From: Escherichia coli
GTDB taxonomy: Bacteria > Pseudomonadota > Gammaproteobacteria > Enterobacterales > Enterobacteriaceae
DNA: 64,000 nt
Reading direction: 5' to 3' (one strand)
NCBI RefSeq assembly: GCF_044647545.1
Contig: NZ_CP172818.1
The translations under genes were made by a program, and so were the position numbers. Numbering within the stretch: the stretch's first letter is position 1; each line of letters starts with the position of its first letter. Of this stretch, positions 12,846 through 35,852 are shown in pieces. A model generated the notes under the pieces. That model made no database searches, was not told where the DNA came from, and worked only from the letters and a program-made list of their open reading frames with translations.

Positions 12846-14207
<1,362 letters not shown>

Positions 14208-14227
<20 letters not shown>

Positions 14228-15257: not shown

Positions 15258-15733
15258 TTTGTTGCCTTAATGAGTAGCGCCACCGCTTCACAGGCAATCC
15301 CTTCCCCACGTCCGGTAAATCCAAGTTTTTCCGTAGTAGTGGCTTTCACGTTAACATCATCCATATGGCAGCCGAGATCTTCGGCAATAAACACGCGCAT
15401 TTGTGGAATGTGCGGCAACATCTTCGGTGCCTGAGCGATGATAGTGACATCGACGTTGCCAAGGGTATAACCCTTCGCCTGAATACGACGCCAGGCTTCG
15501 CGTAGCAGCTCGCGGCTGTCGGCACCTTTAAATGCCGGATCGGTATCCGGGAACAGTTTGCCGATATCCCCCAGCGCCGCCGCGCCAAGCAATGCATCGG
15601 TCAACGCATGGAGCGCCACATCGCCATCAGAATGCGCCAGCAATCCTTTTTCGTAAGGAATGCGTACGCCACCAATGATAATTGGGCCTTCACCGCCAAA
15701 GGCGTGTACGTCAAAACCGTGTCCAATTCGCAT
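15254..15733 (-). CDS. ispF: 2-C-methyl-D-erythritol 2,4-cyclodiphosphate synthase
   Basis: 159-aa ORF; [14 protein letters not shown]. Confidence 0.95.
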
Positions 15734-16443
15734 TATGTATTCTCCTGATGGATGGTTCGGGTGAGGTAAAACTCGGCCAGTGCCAAATCTTCCGGGCGCG
15801 TGACTTTAATGTTATCCGCGCGGCCTTCGACCAACTGCGGATGAAATCCGCAATATTCCAGCGCCGAGGCTTCGTCGGTAATGGTAGCGCCTTCATTTAG
15901 AGCGCGCGTCAGGCAGTCATGTAACAGCTCACGAGGGAAAAATTGCGGCGTCAGCGCGTGCCATAAGCCGTTGCGATCAACGGTATGAGCAATGGCATTT
16001 TTGCCCGGTTCGGCACGTTTCATCGTATCGCGCACTGGTGCGGCGAGGATCCCCCCCGTGCGGCTGGTTTCGCTCAACGCCAACAGGCGCGCGAGGTCAT
16101 CCTGATGCAGACAAGGACGAGCGGCATCATGCACCAATACCCACTGCGCGTCGCCAGCGGCTTTCAAACCTGCCAGCACGGAATCGGCACGCTCATCACC
16201 GCCATCTACAACGGTGATTTGCGGATGATTCGCCAGAGGAAGTTGTGCAAAACGGCTATCGCCAGGACTTATGGCAATGACGACATGTTTCACCCGGGGA
16301 TGCGCCAGCAGCGCATGCACCGAGTGTTCAAGAATGGTTTGATTACCGATTGAGAGATATTGCTTAGGACATTCCGTTTGCATTCGACGGCCAAATCCGG
16401 CCGCCGGAACCACGGCGCAAACATCCAAATGAGTGGTTGCCAT
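15733..16443 (-). CDS. ispD: 2-C-methyl-D-erythritol 4-phosphate cytidylyltransferase
   Basis: 236-aa ORF; 1-bp overlap with ispF. Confidence 0.95.
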
Positions 16444-16461
16444 GTTAATTCCTGGGCTGAT

Positions 16462-16773
16462 TTATCGATTGTTTTGCCCCGCAGACTGTGCGCGCTTCGA
16501 CGCGTCAGGCACCAGACGATAAAAAGTTTCGCCCGGCCTGGTCATGCTGAGTTCATTACGCGCACGCTCTTCGAGCGCCTCCTGGCCGCCATTGAGATCG
16601 TCAATTTCGGCAAAAAGTTGATCGTTTCGCGCTTTAAGTTTCGCGTTTGTAGCTTGCTGTGCCGCCACATCATCATTGACGCGGGTATAGTCATGTATAC
16701 CGTTCTTACCGAACCACAGCGAATACTGTAGCCAGACCAGAATAGCCAGCAACAGCAGCGTTAGTTTACCCAT
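16462..16773 (-). CDS. ftsB: Cell division protein FtsB
   Basis: 103-aa ORF; N-terminal transmembrane segment followed by coiled coil. Confidence 0.93.
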
Positions 16774-16966
16774 CCTGCCCCCTGAAAAACGGCATCATCA
16801 TCCCATGCATCCGAAGACGACTCTACATCCTCTGTTGGGGATACCGCGACAACGCGGGCAAATGTACCACATTTGTCCATTGTTACGTATACCCAGGGCG
16901 TGCAGAACATAATCTCATTATTAGTTACGGTTTGAATTATGAACAGAGGAGACAAGAAAGTACAAA

Positions 16967-17290
16967 TTAGCCCAGTAGCCACATAAACAGTGCGCCAAAC
17001 ATAATGCCTACTGTCACCAGGGTGAAAACAATACTGTAGCGTAGCTTTCCGTCCATCAATGAATGCAGCGCAATCCCCACCACTACCGCGACAGGCATCA
17101 GTGCCAGAAAGAAAGGCCAGGTGTAGATAAAGAAGAACAGCGTGTTAGAGCCATAAATCAACATCGGCATCGCCAGCGCAAATAACCATGAGATAAAACC
17201 GACCACGGCACCAGGCAGTGACCATGTGGTTTCTTCATCCTCAGTAAGGCTGTCGTTATTTGTTAGTGTAATGTTATGGCTATTACGCAT
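16967..17290 (-). CDS. ygbE: Inner membrane protein YgbE
   Basis: 107-aa hydrophobic ORF; position. Confidence 0.8.
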   Translation of the reverse strand: MRNSHNITLTNNDSLTEDEETTWSLPGAVVGFISWLFALAMPMLIYGSNTLFFFIYTWPFFLALMPVAVVVGIALHSLMDGKLRYSIVFTLVTVGIMFGALFMWLLG

Positions 17291-17339
17291 ATTTGATCCT
17301 GTTACTTTGACGAACCGGGCATGGAAACCCGGTGGTGTC

Positions 17340-17945
17340 TCAGGATCTGATAATATCGTTCTGTCTCAACAGATCTAATAATTGCTGTACCAAATTTGTT
17401 ACTAATTGTTCACCATTGAGATGAATTTCTGCCGATTCAGGCGCTTCGTAAACGGAATCTATTCCCGTAAAGTTGCGCAGTTCACCGGCACGCGCTTTCT
17501 TATATAAGCCTTTTGGATCGCGGGCTTCGCAAATCGCCAGCGGTGTATCGACAAACACTTCGATAAAGCGCCCTTCTCCTACGCGTTCGCGAACCATCTG
17601 GCGTTCGGCGCGGTGTGGCGAGATAAATGCGGTCAGCACCACCAGTCCGGCTTCAACCATCAAATTCGCCACTTCACCGACGCGACGGATATTCTCTTTA
17701 CGATCGGCATCGCTAAAACCGAGATCGCTGCATAATCCGTGGCGAACATTGTCGCCATCCAGCAGATACGTACTGACGCCGAGTTTATGTAACGCCTCCT
17801 CCAGCGCCCCGGCGACCGTTGATTTACCGGACCCGGAGAGGCCGGTAAACCACAGCACTACACCACGATGACCGTGGTGTAGCTCGCGTTGTTGCACAGT
17901 GACTGGATGGCTATGCCAGACGACGTTTTCGTCATGCAGCGCCAT
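17340..17945 (-). CDS. cysC: Adenylyl-sulfate (APS) kinase
   Basis: 201-aa ORF; P-loop GLSGSGKST. Confidence 0.95.
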
Positions 17946-19372
17946 TATTTATCTCCCAGCAAATCGCGCGCGCCCCAGTGCGGAAAGTGGCGGCGAACCA
18001 GAGCATTCAATTCCAGTTCGAATACACTGAATTGAGATGGCGCAGCAGTTGCCTGGCTAACTGGCTCGTGCACCATACCGGCACCTACGGTCACATTGCT
18101 CAGGCGATCGATTAAAATCAGCCCACCGGTCACCGGATTTTGCTGATAACGATCTAACACCAGTGGCTCGTCAAAGGTGAGATCTACCAGGCCGATGCCG
18201 TTCAGCGGCAGGTTTTCAACTTCGCGTTGGGTAAGGTTATTAATATCAACCTGATAACGAATACCATCAACACGAGCACGCGTCTTCTTACCGGCAATTT
18301 TGATGTCATAACTCTGGCCCGGGGAAAGCGGCTGTTCCGCCATCCATACCACATCCACCGACGCGCTCTGCACAGCCGGTAACGCTTCGTCTGCCGCCAG
18401 CAGCAGATCGCCACGGCTGATGTCGATCTCATCCGTCAGCACCAGGGTGATCGCTTCTCCGGCAAAGGCTTCTTCGCGATCGCCATCAAAAGTCACGATC
18501 CGCGCGACGTTTGATTCCACACCAGAGGGCAGCACTTTGACACGTTGCCCGACTTCCACGCGACCGGATGCCAGCGTTCCGGCGTAGCCACGAAAATCGA
18601 GATTCGGACGGTTAACGTACTGCACCGGGAAGCGCATTGGCTGAGCATCCACCACTCGCTGGATCTCCACGGTTTCCAGCACTTCTAGCAGTGTCGGACC
18701 GCTGTACCACGGCATACTTTCACTTTGCGAAGCCACGTTGTCGCCTTCCAGTGCGGAGAGCGGCACAAAGCGGATATCCAGATTACCCGGCAGCTGCCCG
18801 GCAAAAGTCAGATAATCTTCACGAATACGGGTGAACGTCTCTTCACTGTAATCCACCAGATCCATTTTGTTGATCGCCACGACCAGATGTTTGATCCCCA
18901 ACAGTGTGGAGATAAAACTGTGACGACGGGTTTGATCGAGCACGCCTTTACGGGCATCGATCAGTAAGATCGCCAGTTCACATGTCGATGCGCCAGTCGC
19001 CATATTGCGGGTGTACTGCTCGTGCCCTGGGGTGTCGGCGATAATAAATTTACGCTTCTCGGTAGAGAAATAGCGGTAGGCCACATCAATAGTGATGCCC
19101 TGTTCGCGCTCAGCTTGCAGGCCGTCCACCAGCAGTGCCAGATCCAGCTTTTCGCCCTGGGTGCCGTGACGCTTACTGTCGTTATGCAGCGATGAGAGCT
19201 GATCTTCGTAGATTTGGCGGGTATCGTGTAGCAGGCGACCAATCAGGGTACTTTTGCCGTCATCGACGCTACCACAGGTCAGAAAACGCAGCAGGCTTTT
19301 ATGTTGTTGCGCAATCATCCAGGCTTCGACGCCGCCTTCATTGGCGATTTGTTGTGCAAGTGCGGTGTTCAT
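17945..19372 (-). CDS. cysN: Sulfate adenylyltransferase subunit 1 (GTPase)
   Basis: 475-aa ORF; GTP-binding motifs [18 protein letters not shown]. Confidence 0.95.
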
Positions 19373-19373
19373 C

Positions 19374-20282
19374 TTAAAAATACCCCTGACGTTTTTTCAG
19401 CTCCATAGACCCCGCCTGGTCGCGGTCAATCACGCGGCCCTGACGTTCACTGGTGGTGGAAACCAGCATCTCTTCGATGATCTCCGGCAGTGTTTGTGCA
19501 TTTGACTCCACCGCACCGGTCAGCGGCCAGCAGCCCAGCGTACGGAAACGCACCATCCGTTTTTTAATCACTTCGCCCGGTTGCAGGTCGATACGGTTGT
19601 CATCAATCATCATCAACATACCGTCGCGTTCCAGAACCGGACGTTCCGCAGCGAGATACAGCGGCACAATGTCGATATTTTCCAGCCAGATGTATTGCCA
19701 GATATCCTGCTCGGTCCAGTTAGAGAGCGGGAAGACGCGGATGCTTTCGCCTTTGTTAATTTGCCCGTTGTAGTTGTGCCACAGCTCCGGGCGCTGATTT
19801 TTCGGATCCCAGCGATGGAAGCGGTCACGGAAAGAGTAGATTCGCTCTTTAGCGCGGGATTTCTCTTCGTCACGACGTGCGCCACCGAAGGCGGCATCAA
19901 AACCGTATTTGTTCAGCGCCTGTTTCAGGCCTTCAGTTTTCATAATATCGGTATGTTTCGCGCTGCCGTGTACGAATGGATTAATCCCCATCGCCACGCC
20001 TTCCGGGTTTTTATGCACCAGCAGCTCGCAGCCGTAGGCTTTCGCCGTACGATCGCGGAACTCATACATCTCGCGGAATTTCCAGCCGGTATCGACATGC
20101 AGCAACGGGAAAGGCAGCGTACCTGGATAAAACGCCTTGCGCGCCAGATGCAGCATGACGCTGGAATCTTTACCGATAGAGTAGAGCATCACCGGATTTG
20201 AGAATTCTGCAGCCACCTCGCGAATAATGTGGATGCTTTCCGCCTCCAGTTGCCGCAGGTGAGTAAGTCGTTTTTGATCCAT
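19374..20282 (-). CDS. cysD: Sulfate adenylyltransferase subunit 2
   Basis: 302-aa ORF; PAPS reductase-like fold. Confidence 0.95.
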
Positions 20283-20533
20283 AACCGTTCCTTTGCAATA
20301 CCGCTATTTTCTTGCCATCAGATGTTTCGACTATAGGGAGCGCAGGAGAACGAATGAAATTACCAATTAGAATGAGTAGTTCCTTAACGGAATAACGATT
20401 TGGCAAAGCTAATGTCAAAAAGTGCTTAAGGCACCAGATTTCGGGCGTTTAGGAAGATTTGAAATTGTTTTAGCGCATCGGCAGTTTCATACTATGGCGG
20501 TAAAAAAATTTGCATGGTATTTAAGGACTCACT

Positions 20534-21571
20534 ATGTTTTCCGCATTGCGCCACCGTACCGCTGCCCTGGCGCTCGGCGTATGCTTTATTCTCCCCGTAC
20601 ACGCCTCGTCACCTAAACCTGGCGATTTTGCTAATACCCAGGCACGACATATTGCTACTTTCTTTCCGGGACGCATGACCGGAACTCCTGCAGAAATGTT
20701 ATCTGCCGATTATATTCGCCAACAGTTTCAGCAAATGGGTTATCGCAGTGATATTCGGACATTTAATAGTCGGTATATTTATACCGCCCGCGATAATCGC
20801 AAGAGCTGGCATAACGTGACGGGAAGTACGGTGATTGCCGCTCATGAAGGCAAAGCTCCGCAGCAGATTATCATTATGGCGCATCTGGATACTTACGCCC
20901 CGCTGAGCGATGCTGACGCCGATGCCAATCTCGGCGGGCTGACGTTACAAGGAATGGATGATAACGCCGCAGGTTTAGGTGTCATGCTGGAATTGGCAGA
21001 ACGCCTGAAAAATACGCCTACCGAGTATGGTATTCGATTTGTGGCGACCAGCGGCGAAGAGGAAGGGAAATTAGGCGCTGAGAATTTACTCAAGCGGATG
21101 AGTGACACCGAAAAGAAAAATACGCTGCTGGTGATTAATCTCGATAACTTAATTGTTGGCGATAAATTGTATTTCAACAGTGGTGTAAAAACCCCTGAAG
21201 CAGTAAGGAAATTAACGCGCGACAGGGCACTGGCAATTGCGCGTAGTCATGGAATTGCCGCAACGACCAATCCGGGTTTGAATAAAAATTATCCGAAGGG
21301 TACTGGCTGTTGTAATGACGCCGAAGTTTTCGACAAAGCCGGTATTGCGGTACTTTCGGTGGAGGCGACCAACTGGAATCTTGGAAATAAGGATGGTTAT
21401 CAGCAACGCTCAAAAACACCGGCCTTCCCGGCGGGAAATAGCTGGCATGATGTAAGGCTTGATAATCAACAGCATATTGATAAGGCGCTTCCTGGAAGAA
21501 TAGAACGTCGTTGCCGTGATGTTATGCGGATAATACTACCGCTGGTGAAGAAACTGGCGAAGGCGTCTTGA
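20534..21571 (+). CDS. iap: Alkaline phosphatase isozyme conversion aminopeptidase (M28 family)
   Basis: 345-aa ORF with signal peptide; immediately upstream of the CRISPR array. Confidence 0.92.
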   Translation: MFSALRHRTAALALGVCFILPVHASSPKPGDFANTQARHIATFFPGRMTGTPAEMLSADYIRQQFQQMGYRSDIRTFNSRYIYTARDNRKSWHNVTGSTVIAAHEGKAPQQIIIMAHLDTYAPLSDADADANLGGLTLQGMDDNAAGLGVMLELAERLKNTPTEYGIRFVATSGEEEGKLGAENLLKRMSDTEKKNTLLVINLDNLIVGDKLYFNSGVKTPEAVRKLTRDRALAIARSHGIAATTNPGLNKNYPKGTGCCNDAEVFDKAGIAVLSVEATNWNLGNKDGYQQRSKTPAFPAGNSWHDVRLDNQQHIDKALPGRIERRCRDVMRIILPLVKKLAKAS

Positions 21572-21652
21572 TGGGTTTGAAAATGGGAGCTGCGAGTTCT
21601 ACCGCAGGGGCGGGGAATTCTAAGTGATATCCATCATCGCATCCAGTGCGCC

Positions 21653-22418
21653 CGGTTTATCCCCGCTGGCGCGGGGAATCGCCGGAAAATATTCATGATG
21701 GGGGTGGTTATGGCGGTTTATCCCCGCTGGCGCGGGGAATCTCGGGGCCGCCGTGTTCACATTTGCCTAATTTCCCGGTTTATCCCCGCTGGCGCGGGGA
21801 ACTCTATCATAAACGAGGTGAATTTATGGAAACTGTACGGTTTATCCCCGCTGGCGCGGGGAACTCGTTAGTTTTCGAAAAAATTGTTTTCTTACGCTGG
21901 TTTATCCCCGCTGGCGCGGGGAACTCAATTATTGTCGTGGACAAATGCCGGTGTTATTGCGGTTTATCCCCGCTGGCGCGGGGAACTCATTCGAGACAAT
22001 CTCTCAAAATTAATGAAATCGGTTTATCCCCGCTGGCGCGGGGAACTCCAGGTATCAAGAAATAATCGAAGCCTTCATGACGGTTTATCCCCGCTGGCGC
22101 GGGGAACTCAATTGATTGCTGGGTGATATTGGAAAATGTTGCGGTTTATCCCCGCTGGCGCGGGGAACTCCTACCGTACAGATCCTGACCGGATATTATT
22201 TTTTTGCGGTTTATCCCCGCTGGCGCGGGGAACTCCGACGTTCGACGAAATGCGCGATGGCGGTCGGCGGTTTATCCCCGCTGGCGCGGGGAACTCTTCT
22301 GCGTCCCCGATGTCTGGCCCGACTGGTCCGGTTTATCCCCGCTGGCGCGGGGAACTCTATATGACCGGAACACTTCCGCCTGACGTTTGCGGTTTATCCC
22401 CGCTGGCGCGGGGAACTC
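21653..22418 (-). CRISPR. CRISPR array, type I-E repeat (plus strand CGGTTTATCCCCGCTGGCGCGGGGAACTC), 13 repeats and 12 spacers; leader at the high-coordinate end
   Basis: Repeat starts at about 21653, 21714, 21776, 21838, 21898, 21960, 22020, 22081, 22142, 22207, 22268, 22329, 22390; the two leader-distal repeats end GAATCG/GAATCT. Confidence 0.97.
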
Positions 22419-22523
22419 TCTAAAAGTATACATTTGTTCTTAAAGCATTTTTTCCCATAAAAACAACCCACCAACCTTAATGTAACATTTCCTTATTATT
22501 AAAGATCAGCTAATTCTTTGTTT
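22419..22523 (-). promoter_or_regulatory. AT-rich CRISPR leader between the last repeat and cas2
   Basis: AT-rich non-coding segment adjoining the consensus repeat; leader role is from established knowledge of type I-E arrays. Confidence 0.7.
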
Positions 22524-23727
<1,204 letters not shown>

Positions 23728-23742
23728 TTTATTACACCTAAA

Positions 23743-24342
23743 TCACAGTGGAGCCAAAGATAGCAAGCCACATCCCATCGATTTAGCTGGCCCAATACCT
23801 TGCTGTACAAGATCTATTAACGCTGGCGCGTCGTTGATGGTGATCACCCCTTCAAAGCAAACCGTTTGAATCTTTCCACTTTTACCATCACCAGAAAAAT
23901 ACTGTGGCCGTTCCGATATGGGATGCACATCTTCAACGCGCGCCGCATTGCCCAATTTACGTTGCAACCACGCGATTTGTTCTGCTTCTTTTATTAACGG
24001 AACCCGACAGCGTTTAATATTCCCTTTACTGTCCAGGCGCTTTTGATTGTCGAGAATAGTTTTGATCGGATTTGCCCGAAGCCGAAAATAGAGTGGAACA
24101 CCAACCTGAAGTTGAAATTCAACCTGTTTAGTTTTAATGACTGTCGCAACGGCAGTTGAAACAGGCATTTGCGCTGACTGCAATAAAACATGACAGCCTT
24201 CTGGTGTGTTTCGCTTCTCAACATGAAAAAGAAAATCACGAGCAGCATCCGGTCTGTTTGGAAATAAATGCCATAATCCCTGGTGAAGTTGGTAAAGATC
24301 CCTGCTCCAGGCCCTGGCAATGATGACTTTACTGAGATACAT
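23743..24342 (-). CDS. casE: Cascade pre-crRNA endoribonuclease CasE (Cas6e)
   Basis: 199-aa ORF starting MYLSKVIIARAW. Confidence 0.95.
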   Translation of the reverse strand: MYLSKVIIARAWSRDLYQLHQGLWHLFPNRPDAARDFLFHVEKRNTPEGCHVLLQSAQMPVSTAVATVIKTKQVEFQLQVGVPLYFRLRANPIKTILDNQKRLDSKGNIKRCRVPLIKEAEQIAWLQRKLGNAARVEDVHPISERPQYFSGDGKSGKIQTVCFEGVITINDAPALIDLVQQGIGPAKSMGCGLLSLAPL

Positions 24343-25003
24343 CCATACCTCCTTTAATCACATACCATTCTCGGGAAGCAAATTGTCGAGGTAAGGTGAT
24401 CATCGGTTCGTCGCGCGCCGTAAATTTTAAATAATGCCCTGTAACTGATTCCTCACTATAAATATCGCCGCCAACGGGCTCATAATTTAATAGCGCCTTC
24501 TGAGGATCCGATGCCTTACATGTCCCCAAAAAAAGCGGGTGTGTTAGTGGGCAACTTCTCCGCCCCAGGTAGGGTGTATACCGAGGCTTTAATACTGCTT
24601 TTTCAAGTTCTGAGATAACCATCGTTGCATGGGGTGTTAACCAGAGAGCGACGGTAAAGGAGGCATCACATAAATATTCGCGCCATGTTTGAATCGTTTC
24701 ATGACTTTTCAAACCACGGTAATCTTCTCGCGCTCCAAGGACTGTATGGTAATCACGCAACCCCGTTACAGACACACGACGATCGTCAAGAATGAGTTCA
24801 TCGCAGCGCACTGCAAATTGCACACTCTCTGATAACGCCTGTAATGAAGAAGTATCATCACGTTGGATCCCAAGACAAGCACCGAGTAGCCCTAATAACC
24901 CGCTTCGGGTCGGAAATCTTCCGGTAGGTCGCGTTCCTTCAAAGGTCGGCTGCCCCCAGGCTTGCATTGGCCCAGCAAGCCGCAAGATCAAATAAGATCT
25001 CAT
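24329..25003 (-). CDS. casD: Cascade subunit CasD (Cas5e)
   Basis: Start taken at MRSYLILRLAGPMQAWG (224 aa); overlaps the casE start. Confidence 0.92.
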   Translation of the reverse strand: MRSYLILRLAGPMQAWGQPTFEGTRPTGRFPTRSGLLGLLGACLGIQRDDTSSLQALSESVQFAVRCDELILDDRRVSVTGLRDYHTVLGAREDYRGLKSHETIQTWREYLCDASFTVALWLTPHATMVISELEKAVLKPRYTPYLGRRSCPLTHPLFLGTCKASDPQKALLNYEPVGGDIYSEESVTGHYLKFTARDEPMITLPRQFASREWYVIKGGMDVSQ

Positions 25004-25005
25004 GT

Positions 25006-26097
25006 TCACGCCTCGCCATTATTACGAACCCAGGATTTTAACTGTTCTAAAGTAGGCATTTGTTTAACTTGAGCAGTAATTGGGTCTACATCAGATAAGC
25101 TGAATTGCGCAGCAGCTCCGTTCAGACCATATCCATTGGCAACGCGATCCCAATATTGATTAAAAGCCTGTATAGACGGTTGCAAAAAGCCATCTTTCGC
25201 TTTAACCGCTTTTTCAAAAGCATTTGCCATAGAAAGTGGCATATCGGAGAAATTAACCATTACCATATCCGCAGGGTTAAAAGCGGCATAAGTACGCTGT
25301 TTTGCTCCAGGGACCTCTGTTGCCAGCATATGAACAACATGGGTTGCAATTTCCAGAGCCTGCTCCCTGGAGGCACCACCTAAATTTTCCTGAAGTTGAG
25401 CGAGGTTAATGTTGGCATAACGATAAAAAACACCCGATGAAAATTCCTGAGTTCCCAGATGTGCAGAACCTTGTTCCTGTAAATCATCTACAGCGGTGAA
25501 CCAGTCAATATCAGAATCAACCTGATGAGTAGTGATCGCATGCGCAATGGACATTGCACCATCAACTTTTCCCAACTCACTCATCATGCCGCTGGTTGCC
25601 ATTCTTCCACTAAGCGCAATATCAACACCCTGCTGTAAATTCACACGTATGGCGGCAATATCTTCCTTAAGAACTTTGAGCAGCTTTTTATCATCCAGAT
25701 TATCAGCCTCTGCTTTTGCAACCTGCTCACAGAACCAGGCTATTTCTCCCACAACCCAGGGAGTAACCGCATCGGCAGAAATCTTTTCGGCTTCATCAAC
25801 TAATTTACCGGAGAGCAGCGCTAATGTCTTATCGATGATTTTTTGGTCAAAACGTTCACCAAGTTTTTGCCGAAGAACATCACGTAATTGTGCAAGATGA
25901 ATTGTTCTGAGACTGGATTCACCAATATTTTGTGCGTAATAATCACTTTTACGCATCGCACGTTTAAGGCTTTGACTTGAAATTCTTACTCGTCTTTTCC
26001 CGCCGAAAATAGCGTCTTTCTGCATGTTCATATCGTCGCGGTTCAGACATGAAGGGCTGTGAGAAATCAGAACATGAATATTGATAAAGTTAGACAT
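25006..26097 (-). CDS. casC: Cascade backbone subunit CasC (Cas7e)
   Basis: 363-aa ORF. Confidence 0.95.
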
Positions 26098-26109
26098 AGA
26101 AAGGTTTCC

Positions 26110-26592
26110 TTACGCATTTTTGTTTGTGGTCAATACAAAATCTTCCAGAAGTTGCTGGCGTTCGCGCTTTCCCCACCAGGTCAACATCCTGGCCATTAAT
26201 GGCCAGTCAAGTACGGGTTCGGCGTGAGTAAGTAATCGACGTAACTGGACCATATCGGCTGTTCTGTCAGCCCGAATTAATTGAAAGATACGGCGCTCGT
26301 TAATTCTTCCACTATTGGCTAAAGCTCTTCCCAACGAGATACCTGTTGTTTGCTCCGGTTTTTTGTCCTGATGTCGGATGACATTCTTTCCTGCGCTCAG
26401 GCAAAACACCATGCGCAAAAGAGCCTGCTGGTGACGTGGGTTTTCCCAACCAAAAGGTTGCACCAGCCTATAAAACGCAGGGATATCGCGTAATTCATCA
26501 GGTTCTGAAACACGTCTAATTTGCGCACATGCTCCATTATCCAGTTGTTGCCAGGCTCGATATAAAGCCATTGCATCAATTTCATCAGCCAT
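26110..26592 (-). CDS. casB: Cascade small subunit CasB (Cse2)
   Basis: 160-aa ORF. Confidence 0.95.
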   Translation of the reverse strand: MADEIDAMALYRAWQQLDNGACAQIRRVSEPDELRDIPAFYRLVQPFGWENPRHQQALLRMVFCLSAGKNVIRHQDKKPEQTTGISLGRALANSGRINERRIFQLIRADRTADMVQLRRLLTHAEPVLDWPLMARMLTWWGKRERQQLLEDFVLTTNKNA

Positions 26593-28093
26593 TTGATGGC
26601 CCTCCTTGCGGTTTTAACTCCCGTAAATGTTTGTATAGCGTGGCGCGGGCAAGCGCTAATGTGCTTATTAATTTAGGATGATGTGCATAGGGAGCTTCAG
26701 ATTGATTAAATAGCATTTCACACAATTGATGAAGTTTGTCTCGTAAATCAGCTATTACCTCATCAGCTTGGGAAAAATTAATATTCGCCAGTACATCGGG
26801 AATTAATAATTCACTCTGTCGATAGAAATGCCTTTCTGCAGTCTCATGAACAGAGACTCCGGCCCCTTTGAAATCTTTATTTTTAAACCCTTCTGCAAAG
26901 GTATATAACGCCTTGCGTAAGGCTGTTTTATATCCCAAACCAACAGTCACTATTTCGTTTATCACATTGCCGTATTGTTGCCACCCCTGATTAAACATCA
27001 ACACATCATGACGCCGTTCAAGAATAGATGCTTGATTATTACGATATCCCCCCATAATCAATTCAAGAGGACTTTGCGGCGCAATATTTCTGAATTGATT
27101 CACAACCGCCGCCACGCGATTTCCATTTTCATTTTGAATAATCTTATCTACCACAACTCGGCTGATTTGTGTCCATGATGGTGCGGAGGTGGTGAAAGCA
27201 AGAAATTTTTCCTCAACCTCCCCTTTCTTGACTGTTACCAGACAAGGGGAATGCGGATGGGGCCATAGCCCATTAACTGTAAAGGTAAATTTTTCCTTAA
27301 GAAAACCGGTATAACGCAAATTGCTTTCCTGTCCACAGCAAGAACATTTACCAATCCCAATGGGATCGCATAATTCAATATGCGCTGGTTGCCAGAATAA
27401 GCCACGGACAAACCCAATTGACGAAGCTGGCACAGATTCATTGGGTTTGACAGGCTTAACCCAGGTAGGTTGGTTTTCCGTATGTAATTCATTGGGAAAT
27501 TGTTTTTGAAGACGAGGTATTGTGAGGACATTGAGTAATACCGTCGAGCGAAGATCGATCCCACATACGAAGGTGGTTATAGGTGTTCCTCCACGTAAAC
27601 CGCTTTTAAAGCCACCACCAAAACCAGGTGCCTGATTCGCCTGGTTGAATAACGCAATCGCAGTGCATCCACCACATAATGCTTCACCCTGCCCCGGTTG
27701 ATTGACAAATGCACAATTCGTCGCGCCGCTTACCCCAGCCAACAGTTTTTCCATTGGAGTCACATCATTTGCTTTGACACCTTTGGTCTGCATAAAGGGA
27801 TGTTCTGCGTGATTAAGGTAGAACATATCTATCCACGGCGCGATGAGTTGTTGAAACTCATCTTCAGTGAGCGGATTCATTATGCGATGTCGAAATTCAA
27901 CGTCATCTTTTGCCGGGGCGATAATTTGCCCAATGCAAACCAGCAGTGCTAAAGCGGCCAGTTCCATATCGTCACGGGGCAAACTTAATCGCCACTGATC
28001 TCTACTGCAGTATAGCGATTGCAGATTTATGATTTGGACTTCCCCCCCGTTTCGCGGGCGTACAGGGATCCAGTTATCAATAAGCAAATTCAT
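26585..28093 (-). CDS. casA: Cascade large subunit CasA (Cse1)
   Basis: 502-aa ORF; 8-bp overlap with casB. Confidence 0.95.
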   Translation of the reverse strand: MNLLIDNWIPVRPRNGGEVQIINLQSLYCSRDQWRLSLPRDDMELAALALLVCIGQIIAPAKDDVEFRHRIMNPLTEDEFQQLIAPWIDMFYLNHAEHPFMQTKGVKANDVTPMEKLLAGVSGATNCAFVNQPGQGEALCGGCTAIALFNQANQAPGFGGGFKSGLRGGTPITTFVCGIDLRSTVLLNVLTIPRLQKQFPNELHTENQPTWVKPVKPNESVPASSIGFVRGLFWQPAHIELCDPIGIGKCSCCGQESNLRYTGFLKEKFTFTVNGLWPHPHSPCLVTVKKGEVEEKFLAFTTSAPSWTQISRVVVDKIIQNENGNRVAAVVNQFRNIAPQSPLELIMGGYRNNQASILERRHDVLMFNQGWQQYGNVINEIVTVGLGYKTALRKALYTFAEGFKNKDFKGAGVSVHETAERHFYRQSELLIPDVLANINFSQADEVIADLRDKLHQLCEMLFNQSEAPYAHHPKLISTLALARATLYKHLRELKPQGGPSNG

Positions 28094-28507: not shown

Positions 28508-31174
28508 TTATTTGGGATTTGCAGGGATGACTCTGGTCATCCCTTCATCCCGAGTGTAGGTAATAACAATATTATTACCCTGCCAGATCCATCCATCCTG
28601 ATTCTGTTTCCCTTCCAGCCAAAGTACCCCATCTTCATCTACTACTTCAGAAAAATTACGTTTCCAGGTGAAGGGTACATTGACGCGATTAAGTGCTAAC
28701 GCCTCATACTGCTGTTCATGACTTAGGTCCTCGTAGACCTGGCCATCGAGCAGTTGTTTACCTGAAGACGTTTGTAAATAAGGCAATAATGGCAGGCTCA
28801 TTTCCCCATCCCTCGTTACCGCAAGAATTGTTTCATCGTTATCCTGCAAGCTATATTCTTCAGCCCACTGCAGAACCTTGCGAGCCTTGAACCTCTTTTC
28901 ACACTCAGCACTTTCATACTTATCCATGCCTTTGATGACCCATTCTGGCTCATCCATTTCAGCATCATCGTAAATGCTATCCAGCCATTGCCGGTAGGCA
29001 TCAGGGAAAAATAAGGATGCTCCATTAAGTTCCTCAATATGTTGCTGCGTCCGCCACATGACTCTAACGTTGCTATAAATATGCTCATGTCGTCCGTAAC
29101 CTTCGCCATCAGGCAGCAAAACGCTGGCAAGAGGAACCTCAAAACCAGCGGGACGATATTTGCGATGATGGCGATGTAAACGGCCCAATCGTTGGAAAAG
29201 TAAATCTGCGGGGCAATGCTGAGTAATTAACCAATCAAAATCAACGTCGAGTGATTGTTCCACGACCTGGGTGGCGACAAGTATCCGTCCAACATTTCGC
29301 TTCCCATTTTTGCCGAAATTGCTAATAACTCGATTCTCTTTTTCACGACGATCGTTCAGCGTAAAGCGCGCATGAAACAAATCTATATCTACTTGCGTGT
29401 TATTTAGTTCCTTTAACCGTTGGTGGCATAGTTGTGCAACATCAACCAAATTGCAGATAAGACAGACTTGTGCACCCGCATTTGCCGCTACGATCATTCG
29501 CTCTAACATCCTAAGGTCAGGTAACATGTCAGCTAAATAAATAGGTTCTGGCCGAATCGAAAAGCGGGGCGGGAGTTGTTCTGAATGAGCTAACAGATCA
29601 AAACGTTGTGCACCATTCACACCTCGCCAGTTAATGAGTGGATATGCGGAGTTATTTTCCTCTGGATCTGTATGCAGACCATAAGTATCCAGAAGTTTCT
29701 GTTTTTGTTTCATTGGTAGAGTTGCGGAAAGAAGAATAACACTCCCCCCCACATCAGCCTGAGCCTTGAGCACAGCCTCCAGCAAGCCGTTCATATACGT
29801 GTCGTAAGCATGAACTTCATCAACAATTAAAACACTTCGACCAATTCCCAAACCACGGATAAAGCGGTGTTTAACTGGCAATACCGATATCAACACCTGA
29901 TCAATCGTGCAAACGCCGATTTGCCCAAGAAACACTTTCTTATTGCTTTGTGACAACCACTGACAACACTGAACCCATGCTTCTTCTTGCCCCTGCTCAG
30001 TAAATGCGCGTGATTTTATTGATTGAAAAAGGTGGTTAAAACGTGAATTACCATGAGCAAGAATAAGATTTGGGGAGGTAAATAAACGGCTCGCGTTCGC
30101 TTCCATTCTGCTGAGCATTGCATTTGCAGTAGCTTGTGTAGGGAGGGCAAAAATAACACTATCCGCAAGTTGTTGGTCAATAAGTTTCCAGGCATAGGCC
30201 AGCGCTGTTTCGGTTTTACCTGATCCCGTAGGTGCCTCAATCACCGTCAGCCCGGGAGCTGCAGGAAGAGCATCAACTAACACTTGTAATTGTCTGGGTT
30301 GATAGCCATTGTCCAGTAGAGCATGAACACCTTCATAACATCGCTTATTTGATACAAGGCCGCTCAACTCCAATACCCGGCTCGCATCCTGCTGTCGGTC
30401 CTGGAAATACGTTCTTAGAGCATTTATGTTGGAAGGTGCATCCTCTTTAAACAGAAAGGTATTCGTTGTAGTCCAGGAGCCTAACCAGTCAGCAAGCGAG
30501 CAAAAACCTGCTAACAGTGATGAACAATCAGGTGGTATATCGTTTATAGATAACCCGGCTGGCGTTAAAAATAATGCTTCGAGTACAGATATCCACTCCT
30601 CACGAGCCTGTTTATCTTGCGCAGCATAAGATGCCAGAGAAGCTGGCATTTCCCAACGCGACTTATCTTGATCCTGGGAATGTAATATAAAACCATGATG
30701 TCCTGTAACGGCCTCTACCCATGGAAACCAGGACTCATAAGGATGAGGAGCGGCATCAAAAAAACTGAAAAAATCCCCGGGAGATTGCTCTGAAAGTGAA
30801 TCCTGGTTAAACCAATACAGACCGGCTGCACCATGATTAAATTTACGGCACATTTGTGTTGATGGACCATTAAGTGATGGCGTTGCAGGATTTAATTTCA
30901 GCCAACTTTCTGCTGATTTATATTGGAATCGTATATCAAACTTTCCGATATCATGAAGGGCAATGAAAAATAACAGCCAGGCTTTCACCATCTGTTTTGA
31001 TAGCATTTCATTTTGGCAAAAAGCATTTTGTAGTACGACTGATTGTTCCCACCAGCAATCTGCAACAGCTGCAACATCCAGGCAATGATAAATCAACAGA
31101 TGAATATCATTTCCTTTCGTCAGGCTTTTTGAGGATTTCCCCCAGTAATGACATATATATTTAAAAGGTTCCAT
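28508..31174 (-). CDS. cas3: CRISPR-associated nuclease/helicase Cas3 (HD nuclease + SF2 helicase)
   Basis: 888-aa ORF starting MEPFKYICHYWGKSS; helicase motifs APTGSGKTE and DEVH. Confidence 0.96.
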   Translation of the reverse strand: MEPFKYICHYWGKSSKSLTKGNDIHLLIYHCLDVAAVADCWWEQSVVLQNAFCQNEMLSKQMVKAWLLFFIALHDIGKFDIRFQYKSAESWLKLNPATPSLNGPSTQMCRKFNHGAAGLYWFNQDSLSEQSPGDFFSFFDAAPHPYESWFPWVEAVTGHHGFILHSQDQDKSRWEMPASLASYAAQDKQAREEWISVLEALFLTPAGLSINDIPPDCSSLLAGFCSLADWLGSWTTTNTFLFKEDAPSNINALRTYFQDRQQDASRVLELSGLVSNKRCYEGVHALLDNGYQPRQLQVLVDALPAAPGLTVIEAPTGSGKTETALAYAWKLIDQQLADSVIFALPTQATANAMLSRMEANASRLFTSPNLILAHGNSRFNHLFQSIKSRAFTEQGQEEAWVQCCQWLSQSNKKVFLGQIGVCTIDQVLISVLPVKHRFIRGLGIGRSVLIVDEVHAYDTYMNGLLEAVLKAQADVGGSVILLSATLPMKQKQKLLDTYGLHTDPEENNSAYPLINWRGVNGAQRFDLLAHSEQLPPRFSIRPEPIYLADMLPDLRMLERMIVAANAGAQVCLICNLVDVAQLCHQRLKELNNTQVDIDLFHARFTLNDRREKENRVISNFGKNGKRNVGRILVATQVVEQSLDVDFDWLITQHCPADLLFQRLGRLHRHHRKYRPAGFEVPLASVLLPDGEGYGRHEHIYSNVRVMWRTQQHIEELNGASLFFPDAYRQWLDSIYDDAEMDEPEWVIKGMDKYESAECEKRFKARKVLQWAEEYSLQDNDETILAVTRDGEMSLPLLPYLQTSSGKQLLDGQVYEDLSHEQQYEALALNRVNVPFTWKRNFSEVVDEDGVLWLEGKQNQDGWIWQGNNIVITYTRDEGMTRVIPANPK

Positions 31175-31479
31175 TAATAGCCTCCCTGTTTTTTTAGTAT
31201 TATCGATGATATCAGTGGACTATTTTTCGATGCTGCTCATAAATATCGAATTACAGTGATATACACATGTCTTGCCTCCCTGCAAAGAAGAGACTAACAT
31301 CCGAATTGCTTAGGTTCGAACGCTGGCCTCAGGTTGATAGAAATATCGCCTGGGGCTTTTGTCCATCTGGTACCTCGCGAATGCTTAATGCCAGACAGCC
31401 TCAAGCACCCAACGCCATTCTATACCTGTTAATTCTTCCAACGACGTTCACGTTTAAAATCAGGAATGCTGCTCGCAAA

Positions 31480-31516
31480 ATAAAAACGCCCCCATCATTT
31501 CTGACAGAGGCGTTTA
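31480..31516 (-). terminator. Putative terminator after cysH (stem aaacgcc / ggcgttt followed by a T-rich tract on the minus strand)
   Basis: Inverted repeat with a large loop, then TTTTTATTTT on the minus strand. Confidence 0.5.
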
Positions 31517-31532
31517 ATTTATCCGGCAATAT

Positions 31533-32267
31533 TTACCCTTCGTGTAATCCACATTCCCTTTTTAAGCCAAAGAAACGCGTTTCTTCTTCCGCCATGCCGG
31601 GTTCCCATTTACGGGTTGTATGGGTATCGCCCACCGATAAATATCCTTCGTCCCATAATGGGTGATATTTCAGGCCATGTTTTTGCAGGTACTGATATAT
31701 CGTTCGGTTATTCCAGTCGATAATCGGCAGCACTTTAAATACGCCACGCTGAATTGCCAGCACCGGTAAATTGGCGCGGCTGCCGGATTGTTCACGGCGC
31801 AGGCCAGCAAACCACGTTTGCGCATTCAGTTCTTTCAGCGCCCGGTTCATCGGTTCGACTTTGTTGATGTCATTGTACTTTTCAATGCCTTCAACGCCCT
31901 GCTCCCACAGTTTGCCGTAGCGTGCTTCCTGCCAGGCGGCGCTTTCAGTAGCACGGTACACTTTCAGGTTGAGCTTGAGTTTGTCCGTTAACTCGTCAAT
32001 AAAGCGGTAGGTTTCCGGGAACAGATAGCCGGTATCGGTGAGGATCACTGGAATATCCGGGTGAATCTGATTCACCAGATGCAGGCTCACCGCCGCCTGA
32101 ATGCCAAAGCTGGAAGAAAGTACATATTCACCAGGCAGATTATCCAGCGCCCAGGCAACGCGGCCTTCAGCGTCCAGTTTTTCCAGTTCGGCGTTAGTTT
32201 CCGCCAGCGCCAGAATGCGATCTACCTTCGGCAGTTCGTTCAGGGCGTTTAGATCGAGTTTGGACAT
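31533..32267 (-). CDS. cysH: Phosphoadenosine phosphosulfate (PAPS) reductase
   Basis: Start taken at [14 protein letters not shown] (244 aa); C-terminal ECGLH motif. Confidence 0.95.
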
Positions 32268-32286
32268 AGATTCCTCACTGTTTGCC

Positions 32287-32328
32287 TTGCCTGATGCGAC
32301 GCTCACGCGTCTTATTAGGCCTACAAGA
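32287..32328. repeat. REP (repetitive extragenic palindromic) element between cysI and cysH
   Basis: gcctgatgcgacgctcacgcgtcttattaggcctacaag matches the REP pattern. Confidence 0.7.
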
Positions 32329-32340
32329 CCGGGCTGATGG

Positions 32341-34053
32341 TTAATCCCATAAATCGCGCGCCGGATCGAGCACCGGGCGAATGATGCCCGCACGCACCGT
32401 AAAGTCGCCGAAGCCTTCACCCGCTTCGCGCTCTTTCGCCCAGCGCCCTATCAGTTCATCAAGCGACGCCAGGATTTCCGGCTCGGTGATGTTTTCTTTA
32501 TACATCCGTGGGATACGTGTCCCAATGCGGTTGCCGCCAAGATGCAGGTTGTAGCGACCCGGCGCTTTCCCCACCAGGCCCACTTCCGCCAGCATCGCGC
32601 GACCACAACCGTTCGGGCAGCCTGTTACACGCATCACGATATGCTCATCGCTGACACCATGTTTCGCCATTAAATTATCGATGTTGTCGATAAAAGACGG
32701 CAGGAAACGCTCCGCTTCCGCCATCGCCAGCGGGCAAGTCGGGAATGACACGCAGGCCATTGAGTTTTCACGCTGCGGCGTGACGGCATTCATTAACCCG
32801 CTTTCTTTGGCGATCTTCTCGATCTTCGCTTTCTCGCTTTCCGGCACGCCGGCGATGATCAGATTCTGGTTCGCCGTAATGCGGAAATCACCTTTGTGGA
32901 TCTTCGCGATCTCCAGCAGGCCAGTTTTCAGCGGACGCCCCGGATAATCAAGGATGCGACCATTTTCGATAAATAGCGTCAGGTGCCAGTTATCATCAAT
33001 GCCCTTAACCCAACCAATACGATCGCCGCGTCCGGTGAACTCATACGGACGGATCGGTTCAAATTTGATCCCCGCGCGACGCTCCACTTCCGCTTTAAAC
33101 GTCTCAACCCCCACGCGCTCCAGCGTGTATTTGGTTTTGGCATTTTTACGATCGGTTCGGTTACCCCAGTCACGCTGAGTTGTCACGACGGCTTCCGCCA
33201 CCGCCAGCGTATGCTCCAGCGGCAGATAGCCAAACTCACTCGCCGTGCGGGCGTAGGTTTTCTTGTTGCCGTGTTCGATAGAAAGCCCACCCCCCACCAG
33301 CAGGTTAAAGCCCACCAGCTTGCCGTTTTCGGCGATTGCCACGAAGTTCATGTCGTTGGCATGCAGATCGATATCGTTCTGCGGCGGGATCACTACCGTG
33401 GTTTTGAATTTACGCGGCAAATAAGTCTGACCGAGGATCGGTTCTTCATCGGTGGTGGCGACTTTTTCCTGATCGAGCCAGATCTCCGCATACGCGCGGG
33501 TACGCGGCAGCAGATGTTCAGATATTTTCTTAGCCCATTCATAGGCTTCCGCGTGCAGCTGCGACTCGTAAGGGTTCGAGGTGCAGAGTACGTTACGGTT
33601 CATGTCGTTAGCAGTCGCCAGCGCATCAAGACCGACCGAGTGCAGCATCTGGTGCACCGGTTTGACGTTCTTTTTCAGAATGCCGTGGAACTGAAACGTC
33701 TGGCGGTTGGTCAGGCGAATGCTGCCATAGATGGTGTTTTCACCGGCAAATTTATCGATCGCCTGCCACTGTTTGGTGGTAATCACCCCACCCGGCAGAC
33801 GACAGCGCAACAGCATCGCGTGGCGCGGCTCCAGCTTCTGTTCAGCACGTTCGGCGCGGATGTCGCGGTCATCCTGCTGATACATGCCGTGGAAGCGGAT
33901 CAGCAGGAAGTTGTCGCCCTTAAAGCCGCCGGTCAGACCGTCGTTTAAATCTTCCGCAATGGTGCCGCGCAGGTAGTTGCTTTCAAGCTTCATGCGCTCG
34001 GCGTCTGTCAGTTTTCCTTCGACCACTAAAGGCCCTGGATGTTTTTCGCTCAT
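32341..34053 (-). CDS. cysI: Sulfite reductase (NADPH) hemoprotein beta subunit
   Basis: 570-aa ORF; siroheme/Fe-S Cys cluster ([17 protein letters not shown]). Confidence 0.96.
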
Positions 34054-35852
34054 TAGTAGACATCTCGCTGATAACGGCGCTCTACGCGCAGCTCACTTAA
34101 AAATTCATCCGCCGCTTCGGTGTCCATGCCACCAAATTCGGCAATCACTTCCAGAAGTGCCTGTTCAACGTCTTTCGCCATGCGATTAGCGTCGCCGCAG
34201 ACATAAATGTGGGCACCGTCATTGATCCAGCGCCACAGCTCTGCGCCCTGTTCGCGCAGTTTGTCTTGTACATAAACTTTTTCTTTTTGGTCGCGCGACC
34301 AGGCAAGATCGATACGCGTCAGCACGCCCTCTTTGACGTAGCGCTGCCATTCCACCTGGTAGAGGAAATCTTCCGTAAAGTGCGGGTTGCCAAAGAACAA
34401 CCAGTTTTTCCCCGGCGCTTCGTCGGCGGCGCGTTGCTGCATAAAGGCGCGGAACGGCGCGATGCCGGTGCCTGGGCCAATCATAATGACCGGCGTTTCC
34501 GGGTTCGCCGGCAGACGGAAGTTGTCGTTGTGCTCGATAAAGACGCGAACTTCGCCCTCCTCTTCGACACGGTCAGCCAGGAAGCTGGATGCACCGCCCG
34601 CGCGAGCACGGCCTTCGATGTCATAACGCACCACACCCACGGTCACGTGGACTTCGCTTTCCACTTCCGCCTGCGAAGAGGCGATAGAGTAAAGACGCGG
34701 CGTCAGTGGACGTAACAGGCCAACCAGCGCTTCTGCATCCAGCTGTGCTGGCGCGAAACGCACCATATCAACAATCGGCGTGGTGGCCGCATAGTGCTGC
34801 AACTTCGCTTTATCGCCCACTAACGGCAGCAAGGATTCGCTGCGCGTCAAGGTGGCGTAATTCTCAACGATGTTGGCCGTGTTGACGGTCAGTTCAAAAT
34901 GCCACTGTAGCGCCTCATTCAGCGGCAGGGTTTTGCCCTCAACGGTGACAGGTTCATCACCTTTCAGCCACAGCAGTTCGACAAGTTCTTTCACCAGTGC
35001 CGGATCGTTCTGATACCAGACGCCCAGCGCGTCACCCGGCTGGTAACGCAGGCCCGAGTCACCTAAGTCAATTTCGATATGGCGAACGTCTTTTTCAGAG
35101 TTACGCCCGGTAATTTTCTGGTTAACAGAGAGGCTCGCCACCAGCGGCGCGTCTTTGCTGTACGGGCTGGTGTGGATTTCATTTACCGCGCCAGTAGCGA
35201 CGGATTGCGAAGGTGCCGCGACAGGCGCACGCGATTTAAGCGCATCAACCACGCGGGCGCGCCACTCGCTGGCAGCGGCCTGATATTCAACGTCGGCATC
35301 GACACGGTCGAGCAGGCGTTCACCGCCCTGTTCCGCCAGCTTGCTGTCAAAATCTTTCCCGGACTGGCAGAAAAATTCATAAGAGCTATCGCCGAGGCTA
35401 AACACGGCAAATGCGGTGTTTTCCAGCTTCGGCGCTTTTTTGGAGAACAGGAACTTATGCAGCGCGACGGCTTCTTCCGGCGGTTCCCCTTCCCCTTGCG
35501 TTGACGTCACCACGATGAGCAGTTTTTCGCTGGCGATTTGTTTGAATTTATAGTCGCCCGCGTTCACCAGCTTAACGTTCAGTTTTGCCGCCAATAAATC
35601 ATCGCGTAATGCTTCAGCAACCCGGCGCGCATTGCCGGTTTGCGAGGCGGAGATAATAGTTATACCCGGCATTTCTGCGGCGGGCGCTGGCGTCGCTGCA
35701 AGCGCAGCAGGCTGCTGGTTGAGCACGCCCCAGAAATAGCCAGAAACCCAGGCAAGCTGGGTAGGAGTTAAATCGGTCGTGGCCGCCTGAAGGCGTGCCA
35801 GTTGCTCCGGGTTCAACGGAAGCAACGCGGAAGGTGGGACCTGTGTCGTCAT
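34053..35852 (-). CDS. cysJ: Sulfite reductase (NADPH) flavoprotein alpha subunit
   Basis: 599-aa ORF; flavodoxin and FNR-like domains; 1-bp overlap with cysI. Confidence 0.96.

Follow-up and report, generated by a model that had tools for sequence, protein, structure and literature searches.

The window analysed here, a stretch of 64,000 nucleotides of an Escherichia coli chromosome extending from hypD to gudD, contains four compact transcription units on the minus strand (ftsB-ispDF-truD-surE-pcm, cysDNC, casABCDE12 and cysJIH). All genes named in an earlier sequence-only reading of this DNA lie on the minus strand and match their RefSeq annotation at 100% identity; gene limits were carried over from that annotation and the junctions were read on the minus strand. 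The units are located as follows:

12846..16773, minus strand, ftsB-ispD-ispF-truD-surE-pcm gene string
17340..20282, minus strand, cysDNC operon
22524..28093, minus strand, casABCDE-cas1-cas2 operon, type I-E, adjoined by a CRISPR array of 13 repeats at 21654-22416
31533..35852, minus strand, cysJIH operon, with a terminator-like hairpin downstream at 31484-31515

The type I-E assignment follows from the full cas gene set by RefSeq names at 100% identity (cas3, cse1/casA, cse2/casB, cas7e, cas5e, cas6e, cas1e and cas2e) together with the adjacent I-E repeat array, Pfam families for I-E loci being precomputed on homologous loci, and casABCDE12 has been described as a single H-NS-repressed operon (PMC4782391). 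In genes, order, strand and junction architecture the four units match the K-12 reference annotation, and the junction contexts from -40 to +21 differ from K-12 by 0-1 mismatches over the 15 starts compared. The Shine-Dalgarno (SD) sequence of cysC is one base apart from that of K-12 (GGGAG here, GGGGG there), and the cysJ/cysI junction is identical in K-12 and O157. The assignment of ispDF, cysDNC, casABCDE12 and cysJIH to operons, made in the sequence-only reading, is right, the same gene order and junctions being annotated in K-12 MG1655; it is also textbook knowledge, long known. The junctions themselves read as follows, all on the minus strand:

13466..13472, minus strand, surE/pcm overlap of 7 nt
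14208..14227, minus strand, truD/surE overlap of 20 nt
15254..15257, minus strand, ispF/truD overlap of 4 nt (ATGA)
15731..15735, minus strand, ispD stop and ispF start in TAATG, 1-nt overlap (shared base 15733), AGGAG SD upstream
17943..17947, minus strand, cysN stop and cysC start in TAATG, 1-nt overlap (shared base 17945), GGGAG SD upstream
19370..19376, minus strand, cysD stop TAA, 1-nt spacer, cysN ATG
22806..22812, minus strand, cas1 stop TGA, 1-nt spacer (22809), cas2 ATG (TGA-A-ATG)
24329..24342, minus strand, casD/casE overlap of 14 nt
25001..25008, minus strand, casC stop TGA, 2-nt spacer, casD ATG (gap, no overlap)
26585..26592, minus strand, casA/casB overlap of 8 nt
34051..34055, minus strand, cysJ stop and cysI start in TAATG, 1-nt overlap (shared base 34053), cysI without an upstream SD

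Five of the six overlaps listed in the sequence-only reading lie where it had placed them, and cas1 and cas2, separated by a single nucleotide, are neighbours as it had described. The exception is casC/casD, for which an overlap had been claimed: the accepted casD ATG at 25003 leaves a 2-nt gap (TGAACATG), and a 4-nt overlap arises only when the GTG at 25009, given in the open reading frame list, is taken as the casD start. This GTG was ruled out by SD spacing and N-terminal conservation: the GAGG SD lies 7 nt from the ATG and just 1 nt from the GTG, and in six other operons it is right behind the ATG that the conserved CasD N-terminus (x-YL-I/L-L-R/K-L-x-GP) starts. The listed overlap hinges on a wrong start codon. 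The overlap range of 1-20 bp given in the same reading has a real 20-nt case, truD/surE, although outside the region to which the range was applied; the ispF/truD overlap, just beyond that region, and the surE/pcm and cysD/cysN junctions were absent from its list. Expressed as stop/start distances, the junctions stand at -1 (ispD/ispF, cysN/cysC, cysJ/cysI), -8 (casA/casB), +2 (casC/casD) and +1 (cas1/cas2, cysD/cysN), all inside the interval of -8 to +10 regarded as predictive of coupling (PMC10666635), with casD/casE (-14) and truD/surE (-20) outside it.

Such distances are common throughout the window. Overlaps occur at 14 of its 41 co-directional junctions, and 17 of the 41 fall between -25 and +2 (p = 1.6e-10 against uniform placement); eight of the 14 overlaps measure exactly -1 or -4 (p = 6e-5). 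The corresponding genome-wide share in E. coli is put at over 30% (PMC7538156), and distances of -4, -1 and -8 occur most often there (PMC10666635). The enrichment is window-wide and equal to the genome norm; it does not single out the cys, isp or cas operons, and the overlaps are normal compact junctions of known E. coli operons, a finding already known.

The downstream genes differ in the strength of their ribosome-binding sites. Compared with 3000 random coding positions (median SD duplex energy -2.4 kcal/mol), ispF (-7.4 kcal/mol) and cysC (-7.3 kcal/mol) carry SDs, and the value at cysI (-3.6 kcal/mol) is matched or beaten by 25% of the random positions. The two strongest are those of casB and casE:

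24348..24354, minus strand, casE SD AAGGAGG inside casD (-12.9 kcal/mol; 0/3000 null positions as strong)
26601..26607, minus strand, casB SD AAGGAGG within the final casA codons, which encode P-Q-G-G (-11.9 kcal/mol; fraction of null positions as strong, 0.001)

The casB motif is conserved in other operons. Occlusion of the ribosome-binding site was considered as a coupling mechanism and rejected: neither local folding energy (-20 to +20) nor the unpaired probability of positions -14 to +3 distinguished junction genes from the other genes of the window (p = 0.16 and 0.09; 52 genes), and therefore structural unmasking is not indicated. As for independent promoters mapped between the genes, which the sequence-only reading had named as the observation that would speak against it, a consensus scan gave no promoter-like site upstream of any junction. 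A terminator scan likewise returned none at the junctions, the sole strong terminator following cysH.

The same reading had inferred tightly coupled, stoichiometric expression and proposed ribosome profiling as a check. Published synthesis rates for K-12, a different strain from that of the window (ribosome profiling of Li et al. 2014, via Mori et al. 2021, PMC8144880 Dataset EV6), show unequal output of neighbours: CysJ 2057 and CysI 2569 (downstream/upstream ratio 1.25), CysD 4115, CysN 3066 and CysC 957 (0.75 for cysD to cysN, 0.31 for cysN to cysC), IspD 123 and IspF 445 (3.6), and, on the very low counts of H-NS-silenced K-12 (2-26 per generation), CasA 6, CasB 15, CasC 26, CasD 8 and CasE 20 (2.5 for both casA to casB and casD to casE). 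The ratios thus run from 0.31 to 3.6, near 1 only at cysJ/cysI and cysD/cysN, and expression is therefore not stoichiometric in the equimolar sense. A downstream output no higher than the upstream one, as pure re-initiation would require, was found for cysN/cysC and cysD/cysN and is borderline for cysJ/cysI; of the five junctions that overlap, three (ispD/ispF, casA/casB and casD/casE) have a downstream gene that exceeds its neighbour 2.5-3.6-fold, and the useful lesson is that an overlap is no sign of equimolar output.

Translational coupling at these junctions is nevertheless plausible and can reasonably be inferred from the sequence. The reading that we favour, with a probability of about 85%, is that these are standard compact junctions of the four known transcription units, at which coupling strength varies from junction to junction and output is not equalised. 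Each downstream ribosome-binding site lies within the upstream reading frame or no more than 2 nt from its end, so that ribosomes finishing the upstream gene would reach the next start site and may keep it unfolded. How far each downstream gene depends on upstream translation we infer from SD strength and output together. The step from cysJ to cysI appears to be the best candidate for an obligatory hand-over, by termination-reinitiation or by initiation dependent on upstream translation, because cysI lacks an SD and its output is close to that of cysJ. The ratios at cysD to cysN and cysN to cysC would fit partial coupling. For ispF, casB and casE, independent de novo initiation would have to supply most of the translation, because they possess moderate to very strong SDs of their own and are made at 2.5-3.6 times the upstream output; casC, the gene of the six-copy Cascade subunit, is flanked by short gaps instead of overlaps.

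It is possible, if rather doubtful, that the overlaps arose incidentally, through compaction of the genome and drift in start and stop positions, each downstream gene being translated independently from its own SD and in no functional way dependent on translation of the gene before it. The strong SDs and high output of casB, casE and ispF agree with this, as do the uncoupled bioB/bioF overlap (PMC6728339) and the dispute over re-initiation in E. coli, where depletion of RRF leaves neighbour ratios unchanged, overlapping pairs included (PMC7538156). Overlap length also varies among lineages, from -4 to -17 at casA/casB (7/7 scorable I-E operons) and from -4 to -19 at casD/casE (7/7), in a sample that includes six gene-called loci. 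However, these two overlaps are kept at only 20-31% protein identity, the O157-type allele included, while casB/casC stays a gap of 3-21 nt in 7/8 loci, and the layout is found in both E. coli alleles and six other genera. Moreover, the distances form narrow peaks at -1 and -4 instead of spreading out, and cysI is made at 1.25 times cysJ without a recognisable SD.

Taken strictly, the sequence-only reading would mean that every overlap enforces tight termination-reinitiation and holds neighbouring proteins at a fixed and essentially equimolar level; this we regard as improbable. The near-unity ratios of cysJ/cysI and cysD/cysN fit it, but pure re-initiation cannot yield the excess seen at ispD/ispF, casA/casB and casD/casE, cysC reaches just 0.31 of cysN, and casC/casD has no overlap at all. 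The products of cysN/cysC, ispD/ispF and ispF/truD are not known to be partners in one obligate complex in E. coli. Strict coupling was found in four of five E. coli overlap pairs tested (PMC6728339) and short overlaps are 4.5-fold enriched for subunits of heteromeric complexes in E. coli (PMC10666635), yet the subunits of Cascade stand at 1:2:6:1:1, a ratio analysed as differential, not coupled, translation (PMC13347799). Internal promoters in upstream genes driving ispF or casE-cas1-cas2, with the overlaps then saying little on co-expression, are scarcely likely: such promoters are reported for about half of E. coli operons (PMC12083536) and the ratios of 3.6 and 2.5 would suit them, but the consensus scan of the minus strand gave no sigma-70-like site in ispD, in casD or towards the 3' end of casA, the 20-kb region as a whole has fewer promoter-like sites (17) than shuffles (26.6 +/- 5.1), and adequate SDs are the simpler explanation.

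Compact junctions with graded coupling remain our preferred reading, and they resemble known systems in part. Oppenheim and Yanofsky are said to have demonstrated genetically, in 1980, coupling in the trp operon (trpE/trpD and trpB/trpA); as there, one-base stop/start overlaps occur here in biosynthetic operons between genes whose neighbouring products form a complex, although coupling at these pairs is putative. A search of the literature covering cysJ/cysI, cysDNC, cysJIH and ispDF returned no direct coupling experiment for any of them. Like the coupled overlapping pairs described elsewhere (PMC6728339, PMC10666635), the junctions are co-directional at -1, -4 or -8, with an SD embedded in the upstream frame and an enrichment among complex subunits (here CysJ/CysI, CysD/CysN and Cascade); unlike those pairs, casD/casE and truD/surE fall outside the predictive distances and three pairs make more downstream than upstream protein.

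The overlaps at casA/casB and casD/casE each come with an almost perfect SD, AAGGAGG, whose codons specify conserved residues at the C-terminus of the upstream protein. We suggest, very tentatively, that the type I-E junction layout may itself help to set the Cascade ratio. If so, the overlaps would serve as step-up re-entry points instead of equalising output, and CasA, CasC and CasD would be constrained at their C-termini by the SDs encoded there. For the same operon, Quax et al. 2013 explained the uneven 1:2:6:1:1 by codon usage and by initiation specific to each cistron, with de novo initiation between cistrons; to this differential-translation idea our suggestion would add a refinement and no new principle, namely the junction detail of an overlap plus AAGGAGG at A/B and D/E and of short gaps around casC, conserved in divergent I-E operons.

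Beyond annotation hygiene the significance of the junctions is small, and they confirm the gene limits and operon structure of a well-studied region. Across prokaryotes, published distance tables for COG pairs give medians of -1 for IspD/IspF (n=612), +2.6 for CysD/CysN (n=859), +10 for CysJ/CysI (first quartile -1, n=230) and +4.6 for Cas1/Cas2 (n=621). A region homologous to CysC sits under nodQ/cysN annotations on rhizobial plasmids, that is, in a CysN-CysC fusion, and a bifunctional IspDF fusion occurs in other bacteria. In these NodQ/CysNC and IspDF proteins co-expression of the same neighbouring activities is fixed by fusion, whereas in E. coli the genes stay apart as individual cistrons and differ in output (0.31 and 3.6).

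In the window, ten short stop/start junctions of the ftsB-ispDF-truD-surE-pcm, cysDNC, casABCDE12 and cysJIH operons were read on the coding strand, together with casC/casD, the only one at which an earlier claim of overlap did not hold.

Junctions (distance in nt, negative for overlap and positive for a gap), with the downstream/upstream ratio of synthesis rates in K-12 and the duplex energy of the downstream Shine-Dalgarno (SD) sequence where available; cas ratios rest on very small counts from a silenced operon and call for caution
15733, minus strand: ispD/ispF, TAATG, -1; ratio 3.6; ispF AGGAG, -7.4 kcal/mol
17945, minus strand: cysN/cysC, TAATG, -1; ratio 0.31; cysC GGGAG, -7.3 kcal/mol
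34053, minus strand: cysJ/cysI, TAATG, -1; ratio 1.25; cysI, -3.6 kcal/mol
26585-26592, minus strand: casA/casB, -8; ratio 2.5; casB AAGGAGG within casA, -11.9 kcal/mol
24329-24342, minus strand: casD/casE, -14; ratio 2.5; casE AAGGAGG within casD, -12.9 kcal/mol
22809 (spacer), minus strand: cas1/cas2, TGA-A-ATG, +1; cas2, -6.1 kcal/mol
25001-25008, minus strand: casC/casD, TGAACATG, +2; ratio 0.31; casD, -6.4 kcal/mol
14208-14227, minus strand: truD/surE, 20-nt overlap
cysD/cysN, +1; ratio 0.75; cysN, -6.6 kcal/mol
ispF/truD, ATGA, -4
surE/pcm, -7

The sequence-only reading had listed the first five of these as overlaps and cas1/cas2 as directly adjacent, and all six were confirmed; its range of 1-20 bp includes truD/surE, which lies outside the interval it named, and the last three junctions are absent from its list. 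It also listed casC/casD as an overlap because a wrong start codon, GTG 25009, was used, whereas the junction is a gap. That start, which comes from a mechanical ORF list and would give a 4-nt overlap, was rejected on SD spacing and N-terminus: the GAGG lies 7 nt from ATG 25003 and 1 nt from GTG 25009, and in six other type I-E operons the conserved CasD N-terminus begins right after the corresponding ATG, with the casD SD formed by the C-terminal casC codons N-G-E-G/A (GGCGAGG).

The operon assignments proved correct. The 21-kb stretch aligns to complete E. coli chromosomes with 99.9% identity, and all genes, pcm through cysJ, are intact and show 100% nucleotide identity to the RefSeq annotation (transferred from NZ_AP022098.1). 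The order is pcm, surE, truD, ispF, ispD, ftsB, ygbE, cysC, cysN, cysD, iap, a CRISPR array of 13 repeats (21654-22416), cas2, cas1, casE, casD, casC, casB, casA, cas3, cysH, cysI and cysJ, all genes being on the minus strand except iap (plus). K-12 MG1655 carries the same genes at the same junction distances, the sole exception being cysI>cysH (74 nt vs 73), and the 15 start contexts compared (-40 to +21) each differ from K-12 by 0 or 1 base. A consensus scan found no promoter-like site upstream of any junction on the minus strand, and its total of 17 such sites was lower than in shuffles (26.6 +/- 5.1). The strongest terminator-like hairpin lies directly after cysH (31484-31515).

Of the 41 adjacent gene pairs in the window that run in one direction, 14 overlap and 17 lie within +2 nt, a clustering far from uniform placement (p = 1.6e-10), and a distance of exactly -1 or -4 accounts for eight of the 14 overlaps (p = 6e-5). 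Nine of them fall beyond the range discussed here (e.g., mazE/mazF, ygcR/ygcQ, ygcN/ygcO), and -4, -1 and -8 are the most frequent distances in the E. coli genome (PMC10666635). Therefore, the pattern is non-random and real, yet it is the genome norm, an already known instance, in textbook operons, of a long-described genome-wide feature. Published distances between COG pairs across prokaryotes (PMC10666635, Table S4) have medians (q1, q3) of -1 (-4, +14; n=612) for IspD>IspF, -1 (-4, +8; n=173) for IspF>TruD, +2.6 (-1, +52.2; n=859) for CysD>CysN, +10 (-1, +27.2; n=230) for CysJ>CysI and +4.6 (-0.1, +14.8; n=621) for Cas1>Cas2. In rhizobial plasmids the region homologous to CysC lies within genes annotated nodQ or cysN, which correspond to the known CysN-CysC fusion.

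The cas junctions were compared among the window, the O157:H7-type I-E allele (20-31% protein identity to the window's Cas3 and CasA-E) and six homologous operons, the six having uniform gene calls.

Distances (nt) in type I-E operons; descriptive only, as loci are mutually related and starts are automated calls
Window E. coli: A>B -8, B>C +12, C>D +2, D>E -14
E. coli O157:H7 allele: A>B -4, B>C +11, C>D +10, D>E -19
Cronobacter: A>B -11, B>C +17, C>D +2, D>E -14
Marinomonas: A>B -11, B>C +18, C>D -1, D>E -14
Geothermobacter: A>B -17, B>C +3, C>D +3, D>E -14
Desulfuromonas: A>B split by IS element, B>C +15, C>D +3, D>E -14
Erwinia: A>B -17, B>C -4, C>D +2, D>E -4
Salmonella: A>B -4, B>C +21, operon truncated after casC, D>E not applicable

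A/B and D/E overlap at all scorable loci, and B>C is a short gap at seven of eight. In Salmonella (L006, 6991-12092) phage-like and methylase genes cut the operon off after casC; in Desulfuromonas (L010, 3729-4873) the IS element sits between casA and casB, and in Geothermobacter (L009, 7922-8749) a Bro-N domain gene lies between casE and cas1. In the calls for near-identical E. coli CasC entries (P0001/P0006), the protein is fused to CasB (528 aa, PF09344+PF09485) or Cas5 (454 aa, PF09344+PF09704); such calls would be accounted for by misassembly, or by a frameshift or stop-loss variant, at casB/casC and casC/casD, where the junctions are very short.

Stoichiometric expression, also claimed from the overlaps, is unsupported in the equimolar sense, the K-12 ribosome-profiling ratios running from 0.31 to 3.6. 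The rates are those of Li et al. (2014; MOPS glucose minimal medium), taken from Mori et al. (2021; PMC8144880, Dataset EV6); division by the protein masses given there turns them into whole-number counts of molecules per generation: CysJ 2057, CysI 2569, CysH 1579; CysD 4115, CysN 3066, CysC 957; FtsB 140, IspD 123, IspF 445; and Cas3 2, CasA 6, CasB 15, CasC 26, CasD 8, CasE 20. Only CysJ/CysI and CysD/CysN, the two pairs that are subunits of one enzyme, have ratios near 1. At three overlapping pairs (ispD/ispF, casA/casB, casD/casE) the downstream protein exceeds the upstream one; therefore, hand-over of terminating ribosomes alone is insufficient, and each of these downstream genes must draw ribosomes independently to its own SD. 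From CasA through CasD the rates run in the same direction as the 1:2:6:1:1 Cascade stoichiometry, and Quax et al. (2013; PMC13347799) analysed the operon as an example of differential translation in which intercistronic initiation takes place de novo.

SD-anti-SD energies, computed for the 20-nt stretch preceding each start, were set against 3000 random coding positions (median -2.4, 5th percentile -6.3 kcal/mol), a quarter of which do as well as cysI. Predicted structure at the ribosome-binding sites did not distinguish junction genes from other genes. The best-supported reading for these operons is that the junctions would put the downstream start within reach of ribosomes ending the upstream gene, with an outcome that differs per junction: cysJ>cysI, which lacks an SD and gives a ratio close to 1, is likeliest to be truly dependent, cysN>cysC resembles a partial hand-over, and ispF, casB and casE are probably chiefly self-initiating. 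Translational coupling is thus a reasonable but unproven proposal here. Coupling was strict in four of the five overlap pairs of Huber et al. and depended steeply on distance (PMC6728339, PMC10666635); Saito et al. found neighbour ratios unchanged on RRF depletion, overlapping pairs included, and favoured de novo initiation (PMC7538156). Dependence in E. coli may work by re-initiation or by a site kept unfolded.

Inside cysC, a perfect 11-bp hairpin (17857-17883, minus strand; +62 to +88 nt past the start; dG -22.5 kcal/mol, z -4.1), identical in K-12 and marked as terminator-like (weak U-run), may account in part for the 3-fold lower output of cysC than of cysN. At ygcU/ygcS (41878-41912, minus strand) a 14-bp hairpin with UUUU directly follows the ygcU stop (dG -24.3, z -3.4) and holds the annotated ygcS AUG (41895) in its loop; either it is a terminator or attenuator, or the ygcS start call is doubtful.

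Some 26 small indels, as judged against the nearest E. coli genomes, at 4400-6000 (ygbI, ltnD/ygbJ), about 7438 (otnK) and 51-111, break the ygbI, ltnD and otnK ORFs, and reflect either lineage pseudogene decay or locally poor sequence; the best full-length identity among 5426 complete genomes is 95.7%, and the 12-39 kb part matches one genome at 99.95%. The rpoS-mutS variable region (about 4370-10466) carries the K-12-like ygbI-ygbN block and lacks the MarR and hydroxyarylic acid decarboxylase BCD block of the best cas-region matches, which makes the window a mosaic in comparison with those strains. Between cysH and cas3, an Rfam sok antitoxin match (RF01794, 102.6 bits, 31254-31410, minus strand), with no intact Hok ORF, is a hokX/sokX remnant; K-12 annotation places sokX on the opposite strand. 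Besides the 13-repeat type I-E array there is one of seven repeats (47966-48365), within a stretch unlike NZ_AP022098.1, and two degenerate repeats (47374-47460); a few repeat-to-repeat spacings in the arrays are irregular (60-67 nt).
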